Origin: an uncultured Planctomycetaceae bacterium
GTDB lineage: Bacteria; Planctomycetota; Planctomycetia; Isosphaerales; Isosphaeraceae
DNA length: 64,000 nucleotides
Reading direction: 5' to 3'
Assembly (NCBI GenBank): GCA_963833985.1
Contig: CAWIAD010000002.1
Span: 384,001 to 448,000, forward strand
The notes under the pieces were generated by a model. That model was not told the DNA's origin. It saw only the letters and a list, made by a program, of their open reading frames with translations, and ran no database searches. The position numbers and the translations under genes were made by a program. Shown piece after piece: positions 1-16,882 of the stretch. The first letter of the stretch is position 1. The number at the start of each line of letters is the position of its first letter.

Positions 1-664
1 CCAGCGGAACCATGGCCAGCAGGAACGACCGGTAGACCAGCAGCAGGACAATCAGGAGCAACGCCACGGTTGCAACGGCTGCGCGGTCGAGGGAGACCTG
101 GACCTGGGCCATGTAATCGCGGCCGATCACCGCGTCGCCGGTCCAGCGTAGCTCCAGGCCAGAGACCCCCGGAGTCTGACCCAGGAGCCTTTCCGCCTGC
201 GATTGCAGCCAGGCAATCGCGCAATGCGCAGTGGGCGAGACGTGCGAGGAATCCAGCGGCAGCACCAGCAGGCTGAGCGTGCCGTCCCGGCTGACCAGAC
301 GCTCGGCAACCTCGGCGGGAGACTGGGGCCCCAGCACCCGAAGCAGGTCCGCTGGTCGATCCTGCGCGCTCAACCGCCGGCTCAGGCGGACCGCGAACTC
401 CCGGTCGGCATCGGTCAAACCGGCCGGCCGGTACAGCTCAAGAACCGCCGCCGACTCGTACGACTGGTCTGGCCAGGCGCGCCGGATCATTTCCGCCGCG
501 CGGCGGCTTTCGGACTCCTCGCCCAGCAGCTTGGACTGGCCCTCCGCGGCCAGCCGTGTCAGGTTCGGAGAACCCGCCCCGACGGCGAGCGCAAGAAGGA
601 TCCAGAAAATGGCGACCCATGCCGGTCGACGGCTCAGGATATCGAGGGCTTTGTCCGGCCACAT
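1..664 (-). CDS. MMPL/RND-family membrane transporter (5' part, runs off window)
   Basis: Not in the ORF track. Manual translation from ATG 664 gives MWPDKALDILSRRPAWVAIFWILLALAVGAG...LELRWTGDAVIGRDYMAQVQVSLDRAAVATVALLLIVLLLVYRSFLLAMVPL, i.e. TM1, a large loop, then the 'TG...D...LLLVYRS...PL' pattern typical of MMPL. Confidence 0.85.
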   Translation of the reverse strand, partial: MWPDKALDILSRRPAWVAIFWILLALAVGAGSPNLTRLAAEGQSKLLGEESESRRAAEMIRRAWPDQSYESAAVLELYRPAGLTDADREFAVRLSRRLSAQDRPADLLRVLGPQSPAEVAERLVSRDGTLSLLVLPLDSSHVSPTAHCAIAWLQSQAERLLGQTPGVSGLELRWTGDAVIGRDYMAQVQVSLDRAAVATVALLLIVLLLVYRSFLLAMVPL

Positions 665-828
665 GGATAGGGCTCCTGCTTCCGTCATCACGCACTTGCC
701 GTGTCCGATCCTTCGGACATTTCCGGCTGGAGCACGCGGTTATCTCTGAACAATGGAGCAGGCACAGGACGTGCCGATGATCCATCCGGGCGGGTTGAGC
801 CAAAGGCCTACCTCGTCAAACTCTCCCG

Positions 829-2955: not shown

Positions 2956-4299
2956 TCAGTCGTGCCGGGCCGGCAGCGGCGCGGACGCGTTCGCGGGATG
3001 GTAGCTGTTGCAGAAGTCGATCCGTTCACCAATGCTGGGGTGGGAACCACGGAAGACCTTGTAGATCAGCCCCGGGCGGGGGTTACTCAGGTTTTCGTGC
3101 TGGAGCTTGACGAAAGCCGTCGCGGCCGAGTGATTGGCGTGCGTCAGGTCGAGTGCGAAGCGGTCGGCCGCATGCTCCTGGAAGCGGCTGTAGGCCATGG
3201 CCACGGGGGACAGGAACAGGCTGGACACCTCGATCAAGAGCAGAATCAGCGGCACCGCCGCAATGTCCGACAGGCTCTGGAACCGCAGCCGGTGGGCGTA
3301 CCGGGCGATCAGCCAGCGGCCCAGGCGATCGACCACGAACAACCCGGTGAGCGTCAGGAGCGACGAGAGCAGGATCGACCACACCACGTGGCCCATCACG
3401 TAATGCCCCATCTCGTGGCCCATGACCGCGAGGACTTCTTTCTCGTCCAGCCGGTCCAGCAGCGTATCCCAGAGGACGATCCGCTTGGTCCCCAGCACAC
3501 CCGTCACGTAAGCGTTGACCATCCTGGTATCGGCGCTCTTGTCCACTTCGAAGACCCGGCTCCCTTCGATGCCGGCCCTCTGGGCCAGTTCCAGTATCGA
3601 CTGCTCGAGTGCCTGGTTCTTCATCGGCCCGAACTTGTTGAACAGCGGATCGATCCAGATCGGCATCACCAGCACGGTCGAGAACAGGAAGGGTACCGAC
3701 AAGAGCGCTGAGTACAGCCACCAACGCCGCGGCGATCGAGAGAGCAGCAGCAACGGGACCCAGGCGAAGGCGAAGCCCGCCAGCATCTCCACGCCCAGGT
3801 GGAGAACCGATTTCGTGAACCACCGGCCCGGGCTCTGGTTCGAGAGACCGTAAGCGTGCTGGCGCACGAACCCCGCGTAATAGTTCAGGGGCAGGTCAAT
3901 CAGGAAGACGAGCCCCAGGTAGAGCACGACGTACAACCCCACCGAGAGGAACCAGTAGCGGCCCAGCCTGTGCGCCAGGTCACGGAGAGTGGCGGAGAAG
4001 CCAGAGAAGGCCATCGCGGCAGGCACCAGCATGCTCCAGCAGACACCCAGCGCCCACAGCCACATACCGCTTCTGTAATATCGCAGGGCCAGGGGAGAAG
4101 GAGTCGGAACCTCGACGGGACGCTGTTCCATGTCCGTTCTCGCGACGAGGGTTCCAGGATCCGGCACACCGCTCTTGCTCCCTGTGTGCTGTTGAGGTTC
4201 CTCGCTCGGCTGGGCCGCCTGCATGGGAACAAGGGAACCGGCGAGCACGATGAGCAGTACCACTACCAGAGCGACTGGCGCAAGCGACTTCCGATTCAT
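2956..4299 (-). CDS. M48 family (Ste24/CAAX-protease-like) membrane zinc metalloprotease
   Basis: HEMGH zinc motif, NAYVTG, RIVLWDTLL, SRFQEHAADRFA and HPSIGERI motifs, plus several TM helices. Confidence 0.93.
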   Translation of the reverse strand: MNRKSLAPVALVVVLLIVLAGSLVPMQAAQPSEEPQQHTGSKSGVPDPGTLVARTDMEQRPVEVPTPSPLALRYYRSGMWLWALGVCWSMLVPAAMAFSGFSATLRDLAHRLGRYWFLSVGLYVVLYLGLVFLIDLPLNYYAGFVRQHAYGLSNQSPGRWFTKSVLHLGVEMLAGFAFAWVPLLLLSRSPRRWWLYSALLSVPFLFSTVLVMPIWIDPLFNKFGPMKNQALEQSILELAQRAGIEGSRVFEVDKSADTRMVNAYVTGVLGTKRIVLWDTLLDRLDEKEVLAVMGHEMGHYVMGHVVWSILLSSLLTLTGLFVVDRLGRWLIARYAHRLRFQSLSDIAAVPLILLLIEVSSLFLSPVAMAYSRFQEHAADRFALDLTHANHSAATAFVKLQHENLSNPRPGLIYKVFRGSHPSIGERIDFCNSYHPANASAPLPARHD

Positions 4300-4357
4300 C
4301 AAGCCCTGGCCCTTTCTGACGTGGTCCTCGAGCCTTCAGGCGGGCGCGGGCCCTTGA

Positions 4358-5776
4358 TCACTCGATGATCTGGTGGGGCTCTGGCTCGCTGATCGGAGCG
4401 TTCGGCTCCGGCTCACCAAAAACGCGGAGCGAGAGATACCCCAGTGCGGCCGCAAGCGCCGCGCTCAGGGCGCCGAGTACATAGGTGGCGTAACGAAACA
4501 GATTGAGCCTGCGCAGGAACTCCGCGCCCTTCTGGCCTTCGGCGGTCTCGGCGATCTCGGTTTTCTCGGCCAGTTCTTGTTTCAGCTGCACCTGCGACTT
4601 CTGAAGGTCGTCCACCTGAAGTCGCAGCTCGTTGGTCTTCCGGGCGTCGGCCTCATTGCGCTCAGCCTGTGTCCTGACCGTGGCCAGCTCATCGGTCAGC
4701 TTGTCGTTCTTGGACACCAGCTCCTTGGTGCGCAGACCCAGAGTTTCGTTGATCGATTGCAGGGCCGATAGCTGCTTGCGGGCCTCGTCGCGGGCCTTCG
4801 CCGCACGCTCGTATCGCTCGGCGAACTGGGCGGGGTTATCGCTGCCGGCCTTCTCCAGCAAAGTATCGACGGTGAGCCGCTGAGTTCCGGCAACCTGGTC
4901 CACCGACCGCGCCAGGACCTTGAGCGACTCGCCCTGATCTTCGAGCCGGTTGTGAAGCTGGTACAGCCCGAGCACCACACCGACCCCCAGCACGCCCAGG
5001 AACGACCCCAGCATGCTGAAGAGCACAGCGGTCTGGATCTTGTCGCCTGATGGGCCGACGTACTGCGGCGTTGATTGTCGATTGAGCATCTTCAGAAGCT
5101 CCGCCTCGAGACGTGGAGAAAGAATCCCCGTTCCCGATCCCGAGCCCTGTGGGCTGGGAATGTTTTCCAGGTCATTGGCCAGCTTGGCCAGGGCCATTCG
5201 CTCGCTTCGCTCGGCAGTCAGGTAGTAACCTTCGACCTGCGCCACGTTCCCGCCCCGCCACTGGAAGAAGCCGCGGGTCTGCTGGATGGGATCGACGACG
5301 TAGGCCACTTGCAGCTTCTGGGCGAAGAAATGTTGATGAATGAAGACATCGTGGTGCGACAGGAAGATCCCGAAGCTGGGATGCGTGTGGTACCAGCCGA
5401 CGATGTCGAGGTCGGGAAACAGCCGATCGCGCTCGCGAGTGATCTCTTCCCAGGAGTCGTGGGTGTAGGTGAAGCTGGCCTGAGTGTTGGCGTAGTGCTT
5501 GGCCTCGAGGCTTTGTGAGATCCACACAAAGGGCGTGCCCGCCGTCTCGTCCAAGCATTCCTTGCCCAGCAAGATGCCGCCGAGCTCGACCGAGGTATCC
5601 GCCAGCGCGTGCCGCTCGATGGCGTCGGCCGCGTGGTAGTCCAGGAAGATGGGCAGGTCGTCGGCGGCGGGCACCTGATAGGACAGGCAGGCGAAGCGGC
5701 GGTCGCGGTCGGGTCGGAGTAGCCGCACCGGCTCGCGGTACCGGATCTCGTCGAAGACCATCTCATCGCCGCTCAC
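4358..5776 (-). CDS. JAB/MPN+ (JAMM) metallo-isopeptidase fused to TM - coiled coil - TM
   Basis: VELGGILLG...VGWYHTHPSFGIFLSHHD (E...HxH...S..D JAMM motif, Rpn11-like). Hydrophobic helices at ~4961-5033 and ~4425-4495 flank a heptad-rich segment. The GTG start at 5776 overlaps the E1 stop (GTGA). Confidence 0.9.
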   Translation of the reverse strand: MSGDEMVFDEIRYREPVRLLRPDRDRRFACLSYQVPAADDLPIFLDYHAADAIERHALADTSVELGGILLGKECLDETAGTPFVWISQSLEAKHYANTQASFTYTHDSWEEITRERDRLFPDLDIVGWYHTHPSFGIFLSHHDVFIHQHFFAQKLQVAYVVDPIQQTRGFFQWRGGNVAQVEGYYLTAERSERMALAKLANDLENIPSPQGSGSGTGILSPRLEAELLKMLNRQSTPQYVGPSGDKIQTAVLFSMLGSFLGVLGVGVVLGLYQLHNRLEDQGESLKVLARSVDQVAGTQRLTVDTLLEKAGSDNPAQFAERYERAAKARDEARKQLSALQSINETLGLRTKELVSKNDKLTDELATVRTQAERNEADARKTNELRLQVDDLQKSQVQLKQELAEKTEIAETAEGQKGAEFLRRLNLFRYATYVLGALSAALAAALGYLSLRVFGEPEPNAPISEPEPHQIIE

Positions 5777-7065
5777 CGGCCCATCCCCCAGCCGCGCGGG
5801 CGGCCGTCCCGGTCGCCAGCCAGAAGGAAGAAACGGCTTGCTCCGGCACCGTCCACGCGGAGGATATCGTACGCGGGCACGCCAAGGTCCGCCAGCGTGC
5901 GGCCGGCCAGCGGGGAAGTCTCCTGCACGGTGCTGATCAGCTCGGGACGGCCCGTTTCGCGGCAGTTCGGGCATGCGGCCTCGGCTTGCCGAACGCTGGT
6001 GCGCGGCCGCATGATCTCCTGCCGCCCGTCGCATCGCGGGCAATGCACGGAGGTCACCAGCTCACGATCGAGAACCAGGGCGAGTGGTCCTTCCAGCTCG
6101 TCCCGCGCCGCGGCCAGCAGTGCGGCGCAGGTGCTCTGGTGGCCGAGCGGCAGCTCGACCGGGCGGGGATAGGTCTCGTGGCTCAGGCAATCCTCGCGAA
6201 ACGGAAGCTGCGTCGTATAAAACTGATTGCCCACGCCATTGAACACCATCGCCGAACCGGCCGCCACCGGCATCCCATGCAGCAGCTTGAGCGCTTCTTG
6301 AACTTGCAGCGCCGCCATCATCGACGCGATCGTCGGCGCCGTGGGGACCTTGCCCGCCAGGATCTCGTCTCGCTTCAGCAGCGGACAGCTATAACGCAGG
6401 TTCAGAAGCTGGTAATCGCGCTGGGTCATGGCGCACTCGTAGCAGGCCGAATCCGGCGGCACGAAGACCTTCACCACGCCCTGGATCTCCTGGATGCCCG
6501 CGTCGATCCAGGGCGTGCCGGTCTTCCAGCACTGACGGTTGACCCAGAGCCGGGCCTCGCGGTTGTCCAGGCAGCCGATCACCAGGTCGACATCAGCGAA
6601 CAGACCCAGGCCCAGATCGGTGATGACGTCCCCGTGCATCGGCACGATGGTGATGTCCGGATTGAGCTCGCAGGCCCGCCGCGCCGCGGCCTTGGCCTTC
6701 GACTGGCCGGCGTCGTCGGCTCGGAAGAGCACCGAGCGCGACAGGTTCGAGGGCTCGATGACGTCCAGATCGATCAGGTAGGTGGTCCCCACGCCCACCA
6801 GTGCCAGGTTCTTCAAAACCTCGTTGCCCAGCGCGCCGGCTCCGACGACCAGCACCCTGGCGGCAGCCAGCCGGTCTTGCCGCCACCAGGAAATGAGACG
6901 GAGGCGGCCGTAGCGATCTTCATCGTCAATTCGCAGCAGCGCCGGATCGCCGTTCTCACCTTCCGGCGGAACGGCAGACGCGGCCGCCGGGCTCGCGCCG
7001 GGCTCCCGCGCATCGCCGGGTCCTGCCTGTGCCTGACCGCGAATCGATAGGGATGGTTGATCCAT
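5773..7065 (-). CDS. E1-like ubiquitin-activating enzyme (ThiF/MoeB/E1 superfamily)
   Basis: DRYGRL...VLVVGAGALGNEVLKNLAL...DLDVIEPSNLSRSVLF...CLDNREAR; ACYEC followed by RYSCP (candidate catalytic Cys at 6385-6387); C-terminal CPRC/CPNC zinc pairs. Start could be 7065 or 7101. Confidence 0.92.
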   Translation of the reverse strand: MDQPSLSIRGQAQAGPGDAREPGASPAAASAVPPEGENGDPALLRIDDEDRYGRLRLISWWRQDRLAAARVLVVGAGALGNEVLKNLALVGVGTTYLIDLDVIEPSNLSRSVLFRADDAGQSKAKAAARRACELNPDITIVPMHGDVITDLGLGLFADVDLVIGCLDNREARLWVNRQCWKTGTPWIDAGIQEIQGVVKVFVPPDSACYECAMTQRDYQLLNLRYSCPLLKRDEILAGKVPTAPTIASMMAALQVQEALKLLHGMPVAAGSAMVFNGVGNQFYTTQLPFREDCLSHETYPRPVELPLGHQSTCAALLAAARDELEGPLALVLDRELVTSVHCPRCDGRQEIMRPRTSVRQAEAACPNCRETGRPELISTVQETSPLAGRTLADLGVPAYDILRVDGAGASRFFLLAGDRDGRPRGWGMGR

Positions 7066-7100
7066 CGGACTTGGTTCCCGCCCTGACCCGCGGATCGCCA

Positions 7101-8093
7101 TTATTCCAGGAACATAATCTCGTCGTTGCTCTCGAGCGGCCGGGACGGGCGAGGCGGGATCTCATCATCCGTATCGAGGACGATCACATCGTCTGTGATC
7201 GTCTCGACGGGCCGGGCGTTGCGTGGACCCGCGCTGTCCGTGAGACATCGGCCTTCACCGTTCGGGGCGGGAATGGGCAAGCTCGCGGACGCGGTCTGGC
7301 ACGGCGACACGGACACCGCGCTGACGGTTGAGCCTGCCGGGTGGATCGCCGTGACAAGACCGGGGGGCCCGGGAGCCAGCACAGTCGTCGTCGTGACCAG
7401 TTCCGGCTGGCCGGTGATCCCGTCGCCGATCGCCCTGGCGTACCGCTCCATGAACTGGCGCACGCGTCCCACCGGAGAGAGGCTCTCCAGGCCTGAGCCG
7501 GAACCGTTTCGGGCGGCGTGGCCGGCACGCGAGGGCTGCCTTGTCGCGCCGGCCGAGGACCCCCTCGTGCTGCCGTTGACGTCGCTCTCCGCGGCTTCAA
7601 TCCGCCCCTGGGCCGCACGCAGGTCGCGCAATGGCCGGGCGTCGGTGGGGAAGAGGATTGCCGTCTGGTTGGCGACCCAGAGCGCGGCTTCCCGGTTGTA
7701 CGGGCTGCGGATGTCGTAGTTGAAATAGCGGGTCATGTCCCAGAGCATCACGCAGAGCTCGTCTAGCTGGACGCTGGGCACCCAGTGCGTGCCGTAACCG
7801 CCCAGACAGACCATGCCGATCTCCGAGATATTGGGATGGTACACCGGAGTCAGCCAGCGCAGCTCTGGAATGGTCCGGGGATAGGATGCACCAAGCTTGA
7901 TCTCCACGCGGTGGTAAAGGACGAGCTTGACCTTGCCGCGATCACGGCATAACCCCTTACCCTTGTAGGTGACAAGATAGTACGTGGGCGGATTGCCCGT
8001 AGCCTGAAAATCAAAGACCGAACTTTCCGACCGCAGCCTTTCAAGGGCCGTCAGGTCGTTTCTCAGGCGCCGCATGCGTGGGGAGTCGTGCAT
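7101..8093 (-). CDS. E2 ubiquitin-conjugating (UBC) enzyme with long disordered C-terminal tail
   Basis: RRLRNDL helix 1, YPRTIP, TPVYHPNISEIGMVCL (HPN motif plus catalytic Cys at 7806-7808), W..S..L, SPYNREAA. Alternative start at 8144. Confidence 0.92.
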   Translation of the reverse strand: MHDSPRMRRLRNDLTALERLRSESSVFDFQATGNPPTYYLVTYKGKGLCRDRGKVKLVLYHRVEIKLGASYPRTIPELRWLTPVYHPNISEIGMVCLGGYGTHWVPSVQLDELCVMLWDMTRYFNYDIRSPYNREAALWVANQTAILFPTDARPLRDLRAAQGRIEAAESDVNGSTRGSSAGATRQPSRAGHAARNGSGSGLESLSPVGRVRQFMERYARAIGDGITGQPELVTTTTVLAPGPPGLVTAIHPAGSTVSAVSVSPCQTASASLPIPAPNGEGRCLTDSAGPRNARPVETITDDVIVLDTDDEIPPRPSRPLESNDEIMFLE

Positions 8094-8261
8094 CGTCTCG
8101 CGGCCACCCGCGGCAAGCGCGGAGCCGACCTCTTGGAGGTACATCGTCTGGCGAAAAGGGAGCTCTGGGGAGGCTGCGGCCGAGGCAGTGAAAACTGTTC
8201 GGGCGAGGCCACAACACCGGGCACCGGGGAATGTCCCGTGCGCCGGTGAACCCCGCCCCGC

Positions 8262-8825: not shown

Positions 8826-10013
8826 TCAGCGGCCGGAGGCGTCCACTTCGATGCTGTTTCCTGCGACCCGGACGACCCTGGCCCAGGTGATCTGGTCCGC
8901 GAAGCGCTGCACATCGACCGAGCCCTCGAAGCCTATCCGATACATGGACAACGGACCGCCAGAGCCGGAGTTCGAGAGCTGATACCCGCTGGAAACGCGC
9001 CTGATCAGCTCCGTCAGCCTGTCCGCGAACTGCCTGGCGGCCTCCCGGTTGCTCAGACCGGAGACCATCACAACAATCGAGTACGCCATGACCGGCTGCT
9101 GGACGCCCGGCGGCGGTGCGGGCGATTGCGCCGGCGGGGGTTCGAAGCCCGAGGGCGGACCAGGGGCTGGTCGCAGAAAACCCGGCGGCACTTCGGCAGG
9201 ATCGCCGGCACCCGAGAACCCAGCCGGGAGGGCCCCGTCCTGCCGATCGATGTTGTGCCTCATCGCATTGAGTCCTGGCAGCGCGATGGCCATGACGATC
9301 ACCACACCGAAGGACGCGATGTAGCTCAGGAAGGGGCCCTTCATGGCATCCCATTCCCTGATCGTGTACCCAAGGATGTAGAAGGGGCAAAACCAGCAGA
9401 GCAGCCCGGTCAAGAGACCGTCGCTGAAGGGCACGATGATGACCCCGGCTGCCCCGTAGAGAAAGAGCACCAGGAACGACAGCACCCCACCGCCAAAGAA
9501 GAGGTACGCCCCGGCAGCCGGGCTGATGAGGGTGAGCAGAAAACCCAGGGCGAGCACGGCGAGTACACCGAAGTAGACAAACCCCGGCAGACCATCGAAT
9601 AAGGAGCCCCGGTCGCGACTTGCCCAGGAGCTTCCCTTGCTCTTTTGCCCCGGTGAGCTTGCCGGGGCCCGGCGGGGGAGCACCGGCGCATCGTATTCAT
9701 TGTCGACTGACGGAAGCGCGGGGGCGGCAACCGGGCCGACCGGCACGTCGTTCAGGCCGTACGGGTCGTCCACGGCTGAATCTGGGATGGATGGCGAGGG
9801 CAAGGAAGGACGCCGTTCCGCGGCCCCACGAGTCTTCCCCGACGAACTCGCTGAGGCGGCCACCGGCGCCGCCCCCCGCGGCGGACGGACGGTCGATGGC
9901 GTCGGGATGACGAAAACGTGACCGCACCCGCTGCACCGGGCCTTCTTGCCCGAAAGAATGCTGTCTTTCTGAAACTTCTTTCCGCAACTGGAGCACGAAA
10001 ACACGATCTGCAT
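8826..10013 (-). CDS. Zn-ribbon / Pro-rich linker / multi-TM membrane protein
   Basis: N-terminal CSSC...CSGC zinc ribbon, Pro/Ser-rich linker, 4-5 hydrophobic helices, and a small C-terminal alpha/beta domain. Confidence 0.75.
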   Translation of the reverse strand: MQIVFSCSSCGKKFQKDSILSGKKARCSGCGHVFVIPTPSTVRPPRGAAPVAASASSSGKTRGAAERRPSLPSPSIPDSAVDDPYGLNDVPVGPVAAPALPSVDNEYDAPVLPRRAPASSPGQKSKGSSWASRDRGSLFDGLPGFVYFGVLAVLALGFLLTLISPAAGAYLFFGGGVLSFLVLFLYGAAGVIIVPFSDGLLTGLLCWFCPFYILGYTIREWDAMKGPFLSYIASFGVVIVMAIALPGLNAMRHNIDRQDGALPAGFSGAGDPAEVPPGFLRPAPGPPSGFEPPPAQSPAPPPGVQQPVMAYSIVVMVSGLSNREAARQFADRLTELIRRVSSGYQLSNSGSGGPLSMYRIGFEGSVDVQRFADQITWARVVRVAGNSIEVDASGR

Positions 10014-12427: not shown

Positions 12428-15400
12428 ATGGATGCAATCCCGGCCGACTGGTGTGAGCAGGCGCAGGAGCTTCTGGCGGCCGCCGAACGAGGCCAGGGCA
12501 AGCCGCTGACCGATCTACTAGACCAGCTCGCAGAGGGCATCCGCCTGCGGCGTGCTCTCGATCAGCGAGCGCCCGAAGCCCCCACAGAGACCGCGCCGAG
12601 CCATCCAGAGGCGGCTCTTCGAGCTGCGACGGGCCATCGCCGCTGAGATTTCCAGTCGCGAGGTCGAGCCGGACGAGCGTTCGGAGCTCTCTGGTCGAGT
12701 GAAGGCGTGGTTGGCCGAGGCGCGGATCACGCTCCGGAACCTGGTGAGCGACCATGCGCTGGACGCGCTGGCTCGAGCGCTTGCGATCGACGGTTTGCGG
12801 ACCGACCTGGAATGGCTCGGTATGCTGGTAACCTGGCTTGACCGGGAAACGCCTCCGGGCCGGATGGCGGCGCTGGATGTTGAGCTGGAACGGATTCGCA
12901 ACGGCCTGGCCGTCTGGCCTGAGCCGCAACGGAAGCCCGACGACCGCCGCGAGGCCCTGCTGCGGCGTTGCGATCGTTTGCGGGGTGTGCTGCTGGAGCG
13001 GCGGATCCGTTCCGAACTGGAGAGACCGGCTGCCGGCGAAACCCCCGAGCAACTGCTCGGCCAGCGTCTCGAGTTTTCCCGGCTGCAAGCGCGGGTGCTG
13101 GCTCTTGAGGAGCCAGACGATGAAGCACGCCCGAAATGGCTGGGCGGCGACCCCGAGCAATGGGCCGACGCGCTCTCGGTGCGGCGGATCGAGCTGTCCG
13201 TCCGGGCCGCGAGCCAGCTCGAGGCGATGAGCCTGGCCGAAGCCCGTCGCCACTGCGAGCGAGCCGCCCAGCGCGCACGCGACGAGGTCAGTGAGATGAT
13301 CGCGTTCGTGCAGGACATGCCCCTGCGCCGGGCCGTGAGCCGGCTGGAGCTGGCGCGGCAGGATCTCCAGCAACTCGCGGTCATCCTTCGCCGCCGTGCG
13401 GGTTCACCGCGCTCCGAGAGCGGCCAGGACGACGAGGACCCGAACGTCCCCGGCGGGGCGCGGCGTGCCGCTTCGCCGCACGATTCAGGCGAAGCTGAGA
13501 TTGCTCGCCAGCGGATTCGCCACCAGGCCCTCGAGCTCAAGAAGGCGGACCGCAGGGTGCGCGGCGAATGGCAAGAGCGGCTACTGGCATTCCGGCTGGC
13601 AAGCGTGCTGGGGACGCGCGTCGCGAGGTTGATCGAGACGGCCGTGCTCTGGCTCATTCTCTTGCTGGTCGGCCTGATCACCGCGGAATGGCTGCTCGAT
13701 CGCGCCGGATTGCTTCTGGACAGCCATCGCCGCTGGCTGGCCTGGGCGGATCTTGCCGTCTGCTCGGCCCTCCTCCTGGAATTTGCCCTCCGGCTGGCTC
13801 TTGCCCCGCGCAAGGGGGTCTACCTGCTGCGCCATTTCGTCCTCGATGTCCTCGCCTCACTTCCGTTCGGCTTCCTTGCCTACCAGTCCGCCGTGGCCGA
13901 GCTGGGGACGGCACCCGGAACGGACGCAACGTTTCTCTGGTTCCTCAAGGCCCTGCAAGTCGGCCGGCTCGTGCAACTGGTACGGTTTCTCCGCCTCACG
14001 CTTCCGGTCCTCAGGCTCGCGCGGCTGGTCCTTTTTTTCCTCAGGCTCGGCGACCGTCTCGTGAGCAAGTACGCGGGGCTATTGAACCGCAACATCATCC
14101 TCTTCGAGCCCTATCACGCACAGCGGCCGGAATCGAGCGATCGGCACCGCCTGGCGGCCCTGCGCGGCGAGCAGGAGCATGCGGCCTGGGCCCTGGCGGC
14201 ACGACTGGACGCCGGCCAGCGCGCGCAGCTTGCCGCCCGAGCCCTGGCCGATCTGGACATCCGCATCGAGACCCAGCCGTTCGAGGTCCCTGGCAGCGAG
14301 GGTGCGGAGCACGAGCCGGGTGAGGGCGTGGGCCGCGACGTTCCCGTGGAGGCGCTCGTCGATCGGCTGATCCAGCTCAGCCCGGAGGGACTCGTCGAGC
14401 AGATGGGACCGGCGTTCGTCACCTCGGCCGATCGTTACCTGCGGCTGCTGGACGTGCCGCTTGTGCGGCGCATGCGGGTGATCCGCAACCTTGTGGCATA
14501 TCGCCAGAAGAGCCCGGCGGAAGCCGTCGCCCTGGCCGCTAACTACGTCGGCCATCTGCTCCAGCGCATCCTTGACGTCGTCTACTTTCTGGCCGACCTG
14601 GAGGGAACGCTGTCGCCGCCGGTCTTCCTTGACCGCCTGGGAGCGACGATCGAGAGCGCGACCCGCACGCCAGCCAGGCGTTTACTCTGGATGGGGTCAG
14701 CCTTCCTGTCACTCTTCGTCGTGGTCAATAGCGTGGGTTTCCTGAAGCCCTTTCGGGGCTTTGTCGACCGGCTTCAAGACTTGCTCGGCTGGCCGGTGAT
14801 CGTCCTGGGTGGTTTCTGCCTGATCTTCTGGCTGCTCGGCTCATGGTTCCGGAAGATCGCCAACCAGTCGGCCGACCATTGTGAGCGGGTGGTCGAGGCG
14901 CAGTTCGCCGCCCAGACCAAGAACCTGAAGTCCCGCCGTCGCGATCAGGACGCGCGGTTCCTGGCCGAACGCGTCATCGATCCGGAACTGTTGCTGAGAT
15001 CGTCCGATAACTCGTTACCGGACCTCTATCGTGGTCATAGCGAGGCCGGGCCCGAATCCACGGGCCGTCTGCTCTTCGAGAACCGCGAGCTGATCTTTCT
15101 GAGGAACATTCGCCTGCTCTATCAGGATTACCTCGACGGCTCGCCCTTTCACCGCAGCGACACCAGGGCCTCGGTGCAACTGCTGGGCAACCTGGCGCTG
15201 GCCAACTTGCGGCGCAGCCACCTGGGCCACCTGCTGCGCGAGGGACGCGCCCTGGACCGCCTTGATCTCAGCCGCGCCGGGCGACTCTTCGGCGGGCCCT
15301 ACCTCTGGTTCAACTACATCACCCGCATGATTGTCCAGGAGACGGCGATCCTGCTCCTGGATTACAACCAGCACGCGATCCCCCTGGACCGCCTGGCCTG

Positions 15401-16882
15401 CTCGCCGCCGGAGACCCGGCACAGCTTCGCCTGCTGGCTGGCGCGGCGCTTGCGGATCGATCCGGGCGAGGTTGTCCTCCCCGAACTGGCCGTCCCCGGG
15501 GCTGAAGACGCGGCTTCATCGGCCGAATGCCATGCGCGTTCCCGGCGCGCCGAGGCGGACGACTTCCTCGAAACCGTGGAGTTCACCGCGATGGACTTCC
15601 TGGCCGACGACCCCCAGCGCGACGCGGGGATTGCGGCCCGCTTTGGCCTCCAGCTCGCCGAGCTCGTACGCAGGGACCGGCAGCAAAATGTCCGTCGCGC
15701 ATTCCGCAGCTTCCCGCTCCATGAGCTCCCCCTGGCGCAGCGAACGATCAACCTCTACGCCTTCTATGAGGCATACCTGTCGCACGGCAGGATCGTCTTC
15801 TTCCCGTTTCTTGTCGCGGGCGCCGCGGGACAGGCCGTCCTGACCGCCTACCGCGCGGTGCGGCGCGGCGTGCGCGAGATCCTTCATCCCAGCGTCGACC
15901 AGGATGACGACGTGCCCGCGGATACGTACTGGGCGGCGCTGCGCAAGATCCACCGCATGCGCAAGCCCGTGTTCATGGGCACGCTCTGGCTCCGCGCCGA
16001 TTCGACCCCGAATATCTCGGCCTGCCTCTGCCCACCGCGCCGCCCGGAATCGCCGCGCATTCACTGATGGAGAGCGACCTCGATTTCATCGGCGCCTCAC
16101 GGCAGGACCGCATCATCGCCGAGCAGATCCGCACCGGCCACCAGCGCCGGCTACGCTGGATCGGTCGCTGGCTCCAGCAGTTCGGCTGGACCTTCGACAC
16201 CCTGCCCGGATACCTCGCCCGCGAGATCCCCTACCTTGCCAACCGGGGCGGAGAAGGCCTTCGCGCCCTGGTGACGGCCTGCGTGCTCGACCACGACGAC
16301 ATCACCAGCCTGGCCTTCTCCATCGAGGGCCTGAAGCGCGTGCTGGCCCACGGTGCCGACGCCGCGCTGGACGGGCAGGCGCTGCCGCCCGGCTTGCCCG
16401 ACCCGGTGGTGAACCTGCGCAAGCTCTGGCATCCTGTGCCGGCGCGGCGCCGCCCGCTGAGCGACCTCTTCCGGCTGGCTTGCTTTCCCGCTTACGGTCC
16501 GCAGCAGCAGGCTCGCATTCTTGCCTATCTGCACCGTCACCGCCGTGCGGTGCGCGGCTGGATTCACGTCATCCTGGGCCAGGCCGGCGACGATCCCTGG
16601 ACCACCGTGCAGAGCCGCATGCGCGAGGTGCTCTTGCGAACGGACCTCTGGAGCGACCAGGTGCTCGTCTTGAGAGCGGTGCAGACGCTGACCATGCTCG
16701 ATGTCCAGCACAATTGCGACCTGGTCTGGAGCCTGGGCGGGTATACGCTGCCGGCCTCCGATGCGGCCGCGGCCAGCGGATCTTTCACCAGGGAGCCGGC
16801 CGAGGAGAGGCAGGTCCCGGAGCGCGATTTCCCGAGAACGGTTGCCGCCGGGAACACGCCGGCAGCAGCCGGAGTGCAGTGA
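12428..16882 (+). CDS. ~1,480-aa membrane protein with voltage-sensor-like (Ion_trans S1-S4) domain; apparent frameshifts ~12595 and ~15997
   Basis: ORFs 12335-12646, 12552-16067 and 16067-16882 join by small indels (TETA/RAIQRRL; LRA/RFDPEYLG). S1-S4 at ~13630-14055 carries ADLAVCSALLLEFALRL, DVLASLP and GRLVQLVRFLRLTLPVLRLARL. Confidence 0.7.

Follow-up and report, generated by a model that had tools for sequence, protein, structure and literature searches.

Operons that bring together Ubl, E1, E2, RING and JAB components were reportedly predicted in prokaryotes, planctomycetes included, by Burroughs, Iyer and Aravind in 2011 (Pfam Prok-RING_1 and Prok-JAB). As far as this predicted type can be followed in the accessible part of the literature, the system described here has all five of its components and likewise a planctomycete host. 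In the available text of PMC4197634 the ubiquitylation-type operons of planctomycetes are presented as related, sporadic, often missing in close relatives and uncharacterised, whereas the present form is found in about 90% of the genomes of its family. Bacterial Ubl operons containing a RING protein are called rare and untested in the accessible part of PMC10557695.

The BilABCD systems of types I and II also have separate Ubl, E2, JAB and E1 genes, and the Bil Ubl, as in the present system, carries a single terminal Gly, often with a short extension that is trimmed by the JAB protein; BilC does both deconjugation and Ubl precursor trimming (PMC10557695, available part). That part of the text mentions no E3 or membrane anchor, the gene order differs, and the E2 described here is of the canonical HPN type. 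The Bil profiles of PADLOC match neither the Ubl nor the E2, and the E1 gives only a weak BilD match (7.6e-11, below generic E1-E2 models). Bub (6E/DUF6527) operons are characterised by Ubl-E2, JAB-E1 or E2-E1 fusions together with DUF6527 (10.1101/2024.11.21.623966, available part), whereas here the genes are four separate ORFs and no DUF6527 was found in the 11 ORFs of the window that were scanned. Nor are the Cap2/Cap3 traits of type II CBASS seen, in which E1 and E2 are fused and a CD-NTase is encoded nearby: here E1 and E2 are separate, and no CD-NTase was found in the 11 window ORFs or in 21 neighbour clusters. The best structural matches of the JAB protein are Rpn11, the Caldiarchaeum Rpn11 homologue and CSN5, with which it has the full MPN+ site in common; these enzymes are soluble or proteasome-linked and ~21-24% identical to it, whereas the JAB protein of the window has two membrane helices. 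Among eukaryotic deubiquitinases, USP19 is membrane-anchored and a cysteine protease. USP30, judging from the accessible description, likewise works at a membrane in the control of membrane proteins and is a cysteine protease. The window JAB differs from both: it is a metalloprotease, it is anchored twice, and its coiled coil is predicted to be on the outside. No two-helix bacterial JAMM protein and no link between CCDC47 and TtfA was found in the literature searched, and the available parts of PMC1779556, PMC11354881, PMC7159879, PMC3417536, PMC4197634, PMC10557695 and 10.1101/2024.11.21.623966 do not describe a two-helix JAB; the 2011 source or a 2012 review may already show a TM-JAB.

The window, that is, the whole stretch of 64,000 nucleotides that was analysed, carries four separate ORFs in a same-strand run, in the order Ubl, E2, E1 and JAB (Table 1), so that Ubl, E1, an E2 with the catalytic Cys and JAB stand in one operon. 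The JAB ORF runs uninterrupted for 472 aa from a GTG at 5776, which overlaps the E1 stop (GTGA); residues are numbered after the database protein P0002 (467 aa, start ATG 5761). Three soil DNA sequencing runs are listed for the sequence, with shares of 0.05-0.08, and no RNA run is among those listed. The Ubl has no real match among sequences of solved structures. Over 57 Ubl loci, at least one pair of which is from the same genome, the C-terminus has an extension needing trimming in 46, ends on Gly in 10 and is frameshifted in one; in the window the JAB protein is intact although the Ubl already ends on Gly. The E2 resembles Ubc13/UBE2N by sequence and has the canonical HPN...C site conserved, and the E1, with UBA7 and UBA1 as its best solved relatives by sequence, has conserved its candidate catalytic Cys motif, YSCPLL. 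Median identity to the window is 92% for the Ubl, 79% for the JAB domain, 74% for both E1 and E2, 61% for the RING protein and 33% for the extension of the JAB protein. The Ubl is under such constraint that it probably has several partners. Five of 37 loci (L031:7249-7989 and four others) have Uma2-type genes inserted between the E1 and JAB genes.

Table 1. Features of the operon, its neighbours and the displaced E3 gene (positions in the window unless a locus is named).
Feature	Position	Strand	Basis or remark
JAB-TM-coiled coil-TM de-Ubl-ase gene (predicted)	4358..5776	(-)	ORF, Pfam, homologue sets
JAMM/MPN+ catalytic domain	5204..5659	(-)	residues ~35-186; Pfam, invariant columns, Rpn11 fold
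Short helix before TM1, residues 214-228	5078..5122	(-)	near-invariant; helix in AF2
TM1, residues 244-266	4964..5032	(-)	hydropathy, homologue conservation
Helical loop, predicted extracytoplasmic	4502..4963	(-)	AF2, heptad test; helix break near 308
TM2, residues ~424-445	4427..4492	(-)	followed by conserved K/R446 and short acidic tail
E1 (ThiF family)	5773..7101	(-)	Pfam; true start probably downstream of 7101
E2 (UQ_con), low-complexity tail	7101..8144	(-)	Pfam; true start probably near 8096
Ubl, YukD-like, 97 aa	8262..8555	(-)	Pfam; ends on free Gly
M48 (Ste24/HtpX-like) membrane peptidase	2956..4302	(-)	Pfam; usual downstream neighbour
5' part of MMPL-family RND transporter	2..691	(-)	same-strand downstream neighbour; candidate client only
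Displaced E3: N-terminal helix, DUF3137-like core, Prok-RING_1	G000:C1:4884-5726; L118:1453-2292	(-)	other contig of genome

The N-terminal part of the JAB protein matches Pfam JAB (E 1.7e-9) and Prok-JAB. Throughout an alignment of 110 homologues, drawn from 120 listed after ten had been dropped as partial or to trim the set, E59, H125, H127, S135 and D138 are unchanged, and the zinc site (Glu and H-x-H-x7-S-x2-D) is complete. The AF2 model (pLDDT 81) has the MPN fold, with Rpn11 as the best structural match (Z 15.3, rmsd 3.0, 150 aligned; Foldseek E 7e-8). Only two strongly hydrophobic 19-mers are present in the protein, with Kyte-Doolittle (KD) values of 2.33 and 1.73 (the runner-up reaches 0.88), and the loop between them is ~160 aa long. 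In the close set of 110 homologues a KD value of at least 1.5 is reached by TM1 in all and by TM2 in 97, the loop measures 149-170 aa, and a further hydrophobic segment or signal anchor at KD >= 1.6 is found in none. TM1 has a stripe of small residues at 249, 252, 256 and 259, of which G252 is invariant in the 110 homologues. Residues 330-405 show clear heptad periodicity (3.45-3.5), which 0 of 2000 shuffles reached, and residues 267-305 show it more weakly; long helices are predicted by AF2 at 240-307, 310-405 and 407-448.

The first-pass annotation, made from the letters of the sequence, had described an Rpn11-like JAB domain followed by two hydrophobic helices flanking a heptad-rich segment. 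The domain is borne out by the Pfam matches, the invariant JAMM residues and the fold, and the helices and the segment by hydropathy, the heptad test (330-405) and AF2. The annotation had also raised the objection that the fusion might be an indel artefact, and had proposed checking whether orthologues keep both helices. Because the set of 110 homologues was ranked with the full protein, which favours the tail, the second question was put with a JAB-only query that avoids this bias. The best 150 representatives of that search include 145 with the zinc motif and 107 of 400-560 aa in length; two helices are kept in 101 of these 107, one in four and none in two. At the level of genes, 36 of 50 genomic loci have one ORF with both helices, and the remaining loci are cut by contig ends (4), in several pieces (6) or have one helix over the threshold (4). 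The two-helix JAB fusion is real and no indel artefact.

We infer that the most likely topology has the JAB domain inside, the helical loop outside and the tail inside, because there is no other hydrophobic stretch in the protein and because it has to work with the Ubl, E1 and E2. No hydrophobic anchor of the kind found in the JAB protein was seen in the Ubl and E1 (by inspection) or in the E2 (checked in relatives). Immediately after TM2 there is K/R in 109 of 110 homologues, and in a diverse two-helix set of 101 proteins, 64 have more K/R after TM2 than before it, 20 have equal numbers and 17 show the reverse. When flanks of 12 residues are compared in the close set, there is more K/R before TM2 (89/110), and TM1 has no N-in charge bias in either set, so that the charge bias around both helices has to be read as mixed. 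This arrangement, a cytoplasmic JAB domain and an extracytoplasmic loop, is the one the first-pass annotation had suggested. Its proposal that de-Ubl activity is localised to the membrane is also supported, as the partner E3 appears to be membrane-anchored as well (see below). Its further proposal, switching by periplasmic or envelope signals, fares less well and is weakly supported, given the 33% identity of the extension and its varying loop, and the interpretation as a whole is partly supported.

No part of the system is less conserved than the extension, whose median identity is less than half that of the JAB domain, and in the diverse two-helix set the loop is anything from 115 to 203 aa long. 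A fold search with residues 309-405 returned generic coiled coils only (Z 7.5-7.8), tetherin (Z 7.6) among them; a structure-atlas search with residues 180-467 returned only the family's own clusters, with scores < 0.8, and complex prediction with two copies of residues 212-452 scored 0.10 and 0.14 (mark 0.42), which speaks neither for nor against a dimer. Because the loop is poorly conserved and variable in length, an outer stalk or spacer would fit these sequences better than a sensor. Outside the JAB domain the invariant spots are the short helix at 214-228, in which P216, R217, E219, A220, E221, L222 and M225 are each present in 110/110 homologues, and G252 in TM1; contacts are therefore more likely at or in the membrane. 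The short helix is probably a cytoplasmic interaction or membrane-facing motif, judging by its conservation.

The RING E3 is unlinked to the Ubl-E2-E1-JAB operon in this genome. Genes for TM-RING proteins were first met in more distant operons and then searched back in close relatives, where, of 37 loci with 6 kb of flank, 17 have the RING gene upstream of the Ubl gene in the same orientation; in family f3 it is downstream of the operon in 8/8 loci. The displacement was missed in the first-pass annotation. Just upstream of the displaced gene there is a phosphopantetheinyl-transferase-like ORF, and such an ORF is found likewise in five intact loci. Among 85 E3 sequences, Prok-RING_1 was matched in all and DUF3137 in 79, other matches being to zinc-finger families only, and the eight RING ligand positions are invariant. 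An N-terminal helix is present in 85/85 and is followed by K/R in 85/85, which therefore places the RING inside.

The E3 model (pLDDT 89) has TtfA as its top fold match (Z 14.9, rmsd 3.8, 160 aligned; Foldseek E 1.5e-7), followed by the translocon chains 7tut_4 (Z 13.2, rmsd 6.1, 201 aligned) and 9i78_4 (Z 10.6, rmsd 5.8, 199 aligned); the next match has Z 7.9, and RING domains about 5.5. The E3 has the single N-terminal helix and the globular alpha/beta domain of the CCDC47/TtfA fold, at an identity to TtfA and CCDC47 of 7-14%, and a PDB sequence search with it returned no CCDC47 or TtfA chain. Chain 4 of 7TUT is probably CCDC47, to judge from its agreement with 9I78. For 9i78_4, the range 76-372 agrees with CCDC47 residues 76-370 (PMC12572126, available part). 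According to the accessible texts, mycobacterial TtfA is anchored by its N-terminus, faces the cytoplasm and partners the multipass transporter MmpL3 (PMC6593404), and CCDC47, a protein of the ER, is a member of the PAT chaperone complex for multipass membrane proteins (PMC12572126). The single helix and the cytoplasmic globular fold are thus, on the model, common to all three proteins, which differ at the C-terminus: a RING in the E3, latch helices in CCDC47 and a disordered tail in TtfA. These modelled fold relatives are the best hint at substrates and point to multipass membrane proteins as possible clients, with the reservation that a shared fold shows no function.

Of 105 genomes of the family, 95 have a match to JAB, 93 to Ubl and 95 to RING, one JAB and one Ubl count resting on the paralogue only. 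Genus g244 lacks JAB, Ubl and RING in 7/7 genomes and E2 in the 5/5 tested, and its E1 matches are at the MoeB/ThiF level only, the orthologue being gone. In two of these genomes (G341 and G336) a gap of ~0.3 kb separates the flanking genes EamA and M48-MMPL at the place expected for the five genes; among 37 other loci, seven have EamA close to the upstream end. The same junction, EamA adjoining M48-MMPL with the five-gene block missing, can be seen at L131:8284-10861 and L132:8694-11283. The absence in g244 is probably one loss, as kin are not independent. Because they are co-present in the family and co-lost in g244, RING, Ubl, E2, E1 and JAB form an inherited unit, and because a whole genus lives without it, the system is not essential. 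Beyond the family, a JAB match was obtained for 23 of 227 further genomes from the class and, at 1e-10, for 0 of 250 other genomes of a phylum sample, a blank which is a sampling effect since the class sample found relatives. Most of the named relatives belong to Isosphaeraceae or are unclassified planctomycetes, and named loci include Singulisphaera acidiphila, Aquisphaera insulae and Tautonia sociabilis, so that the family has cultured members.

In family f3 a separate soluble JAB is encoded in 7 of the 8 operons fetched, and the two-helix JAB is kept too, which suggests a membrane-specific job for the anchored enzyme. The f3 operons (L098-L105) comprise Ubl, E2, soluble JAB, E1, two-helix JAB, a second E2 and one or two TM-RING genes. 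The catalytic Cys is missing from this additional, UEV-like E2 in all six of the eight loci where the site was parsed. All eight f3 genomes with the two-helix JAB have a full-length TM-RING, and in the 12 f2/f98 genomes that have only a one-helix paralogue, matches to the E3 profile did not extend beyond the RING part. The TM-RING is kept without JAB or operon-type E1 in three f3 genomes that are near-complete (G173, G418 and G451). The orphan TM-RING genes of f3 genus g8 (L129:9196-10008, L130:9260-10072), likewise without JAB or operon-type E1, are near amtB-glnK-like genes, and such genes also follow intact f3 operons.

Downstream of JAB an M48 peptidase gene is found in 34 of 38 loci and an MMPL gene in 24 of 38; both are conserved neighbours and not proven parts. 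M48 was considered and rejected as a fixed degradation partner: it is kept in 7/7 g244 genomes and missing from 5/5 g246 genomes that keep the system. MMPL genes are present in 105/105 family genomes, including those without the Ubl system, and are not near the operon in the f3 loci. The MMPL gene of this genome (window 2-691; G000:C2:381823-384691) aligns in four pieces over changing frames, probably owing to assembly indels. No 20S proteasome was found in the genome, the only related find being an HslV-like gene beside HslU. Several other genes were rejected as components, namely the Zn-ribbon membrane gene at 8826-10013 (adjacent in only 2 of 50 loci), the ORFs at 871-2884 (adjacent in 1-2 of 50) and a second JAB gene of this genome, which adjoins a cysteine-synthase-like gene and is unrelated to the operon. 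Among 21 recurrent neighbour clusters scanned, out of 184, no defence or mobility family was found save the Uma2-type.

Taken together, we give a probability of roughly 0.5 to a housekeeping cycle which tags membrane proteins and in which the JAB enzyme removes the tags at the inner face and matures the pro-Ubl. In such a cycle E1 would activate the Ubl, E2 would take it over, and the single-pass E3 would bring the charged E2 to the cytoplasmic loops of inner-membrane proteins. The two helices would hold the JAB domain at the same membrane face, where the tag could be removed or edited, and the outer helical loop may be a stalk or spacer, perhaps for oligomerisation. In most relatives the JAB enzyme would also trim the Ubl precursor (46/57 loci), a step not needed here with the Ubl ending on Gly. 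Because the ligase is also membrane-bound, the kit probably tags and untags membrane proteins, and the likeliest purpose would be their routine control (quality control, turnover or sorting) and not defence. The fixed position, the ordinary neighbours in the 21 clusters scanned and a Ubl more conserved than any enzyme would make a housekeeping pattern. Against it stand the low identity of the E3 to its fold relatives and the RING in place of the CCDC47 latch helices, the M48 gene that is not co-inherited, the proteasome search that found no 20S, the universal MMPL, the orphan TM-RINGs, the mixed charge bias and the genus that does without the system. By analogy it also counts against it that the bacterial E1-E2 systems tested in the accessible texts are all tied to defence or stress. 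One tentative and, in our judgement, rather unlikely elaboration is a standing quality control similar to ERAD, with the CCDC47/TtfA-fold E3 reading new or misfolded multipass proteins and tagging them with a Ubl as constrained as ubiquitin, and the two-helix JAMM enzyme proofreading the tag at the membrane. The neighbouring MMPL transporter is one candidate client, and the Cys-less E2 and second, soluble JAB of f3 may extend the parallel.

The analogy just named could also be taken at face value, the system being a Bil-like anti-phage one that puts Ubl on phage or host proteins at the membrane, with the JAB enzyme restraining it until the cell is infected or its envelope is damaged. The bacterial E1/E2/JAB systems whose function has been tested, Bil and CBASS, serve defence according to the available parts of PMC10557695 and 10.1101/2024.11.21.623966, a RING-containing Ubl set appears among FtsH-type conflict systems in that of PMC7159879, and the distribution outside the family (23/227) is patchy. 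We regard a defence role as unlikely, however, since in the family the system is near-universal at a fixed site, PADLOC has no match for Ubl or E2 and a weak one for JAB (1.4e-4), no defence or mobility family besides the Uma2-type turned up in the 21 neighbour clusters scanned, and the Ubl is highly conserved and not diversifying. The two remaining alternatives concern the extension. The outer loop might sense a periplasmic or envelope cue and switch the JAB domain via TM1. Chemoreceptor sensor domains are similar in length to this loop, the TM-loop-TM layout agrees with such a role, and the invariant Gly and small-residue stripe of TM1, with a near-invariant helix just inside, would be suited to relaying movement. 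The low identity of the extension, its variable length, the fold matches to generic coiled coils and a paralogous clade with one helix and a different outer domain make a signal-switched enzyme distinctly improbable. A dual use is more doubtful still: TM-coiled coil-TM as a spacer or tether between membrane sheets or in invaginations, with the JAB domain marking a site of Ubl recycling. Tetherin and Climp63 are parallels in layout, both anchors are kept in 101/107 representatives while the sequence drifts, and the predicted arms differ in length, with ~40 aa up to the break at 308 and >100 aa beyond it, which ill suits a simple hairpin. The loop length is not fixed, though, the basic residues that follow TM2 are in keeping with its normal insertion into the membrane that also holds TM1, and the tetherin match is level with unrelated coiled coils.

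Independently of which reading holds, the architecture is real and conserved, a variant of a predicted and experimentally unproven operon type. What the locus adds is a clean five-gene unit that belongs to the core of one family, and an E3 whose fold points to membrane-protein clients. For Bil, Bub and CBASS the accessible texts mention neither RING E3s nor membrane anchors, and they connect these systems with defence or stress. The present system, by contrast, combines E1, E2 and E3 tiers, its ligase and its de-tagging enzyme are both membrane-bound, and in its family it behaves as a core function would. It lends itself directly to the question whether bacteria tag membrane proteins in a RING-dependent way for purposes other than defence, a question that bears on the origin of eukaryotic membrane-protein ubiquitination.

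In a JAB tree (quick method, 180 rows, unrooted) nearly all two-helix proteins are in a clade of 139 rows (SH-aLRT 94, below the starred level), and the one-helix clade B (97) and the soluble f3 JABs (96) are separate. The paralogous operon of L052-L058 and L106-L113 encodes a one-helix JAB, a multi-helix FHA protein, Zn-ribbon and RING membrane proteins, a RING-DUF4190-trypsin protein, E2 and DUF2752, and some genomes of the family have both operons. In two genomes (L052:7494-8195 and L054:7232-7942) the paralogous Ubl is in frame with a Zn-ribbon and DUF4190 membrane protein, possibly a ready-made membrane substrate for a membrane JAB. Four proteins of 612-1113 aa (P0244, P0251, P0258 and P0267) have two JAB-like stretches and one membrane helix and form their own small clade. 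Elsewhere in the window, an ORF of 1171 aa at 12552-16067 (+) has a weak Ion_trans match (E 0.007) at residues 364-498 between long helical flanks.
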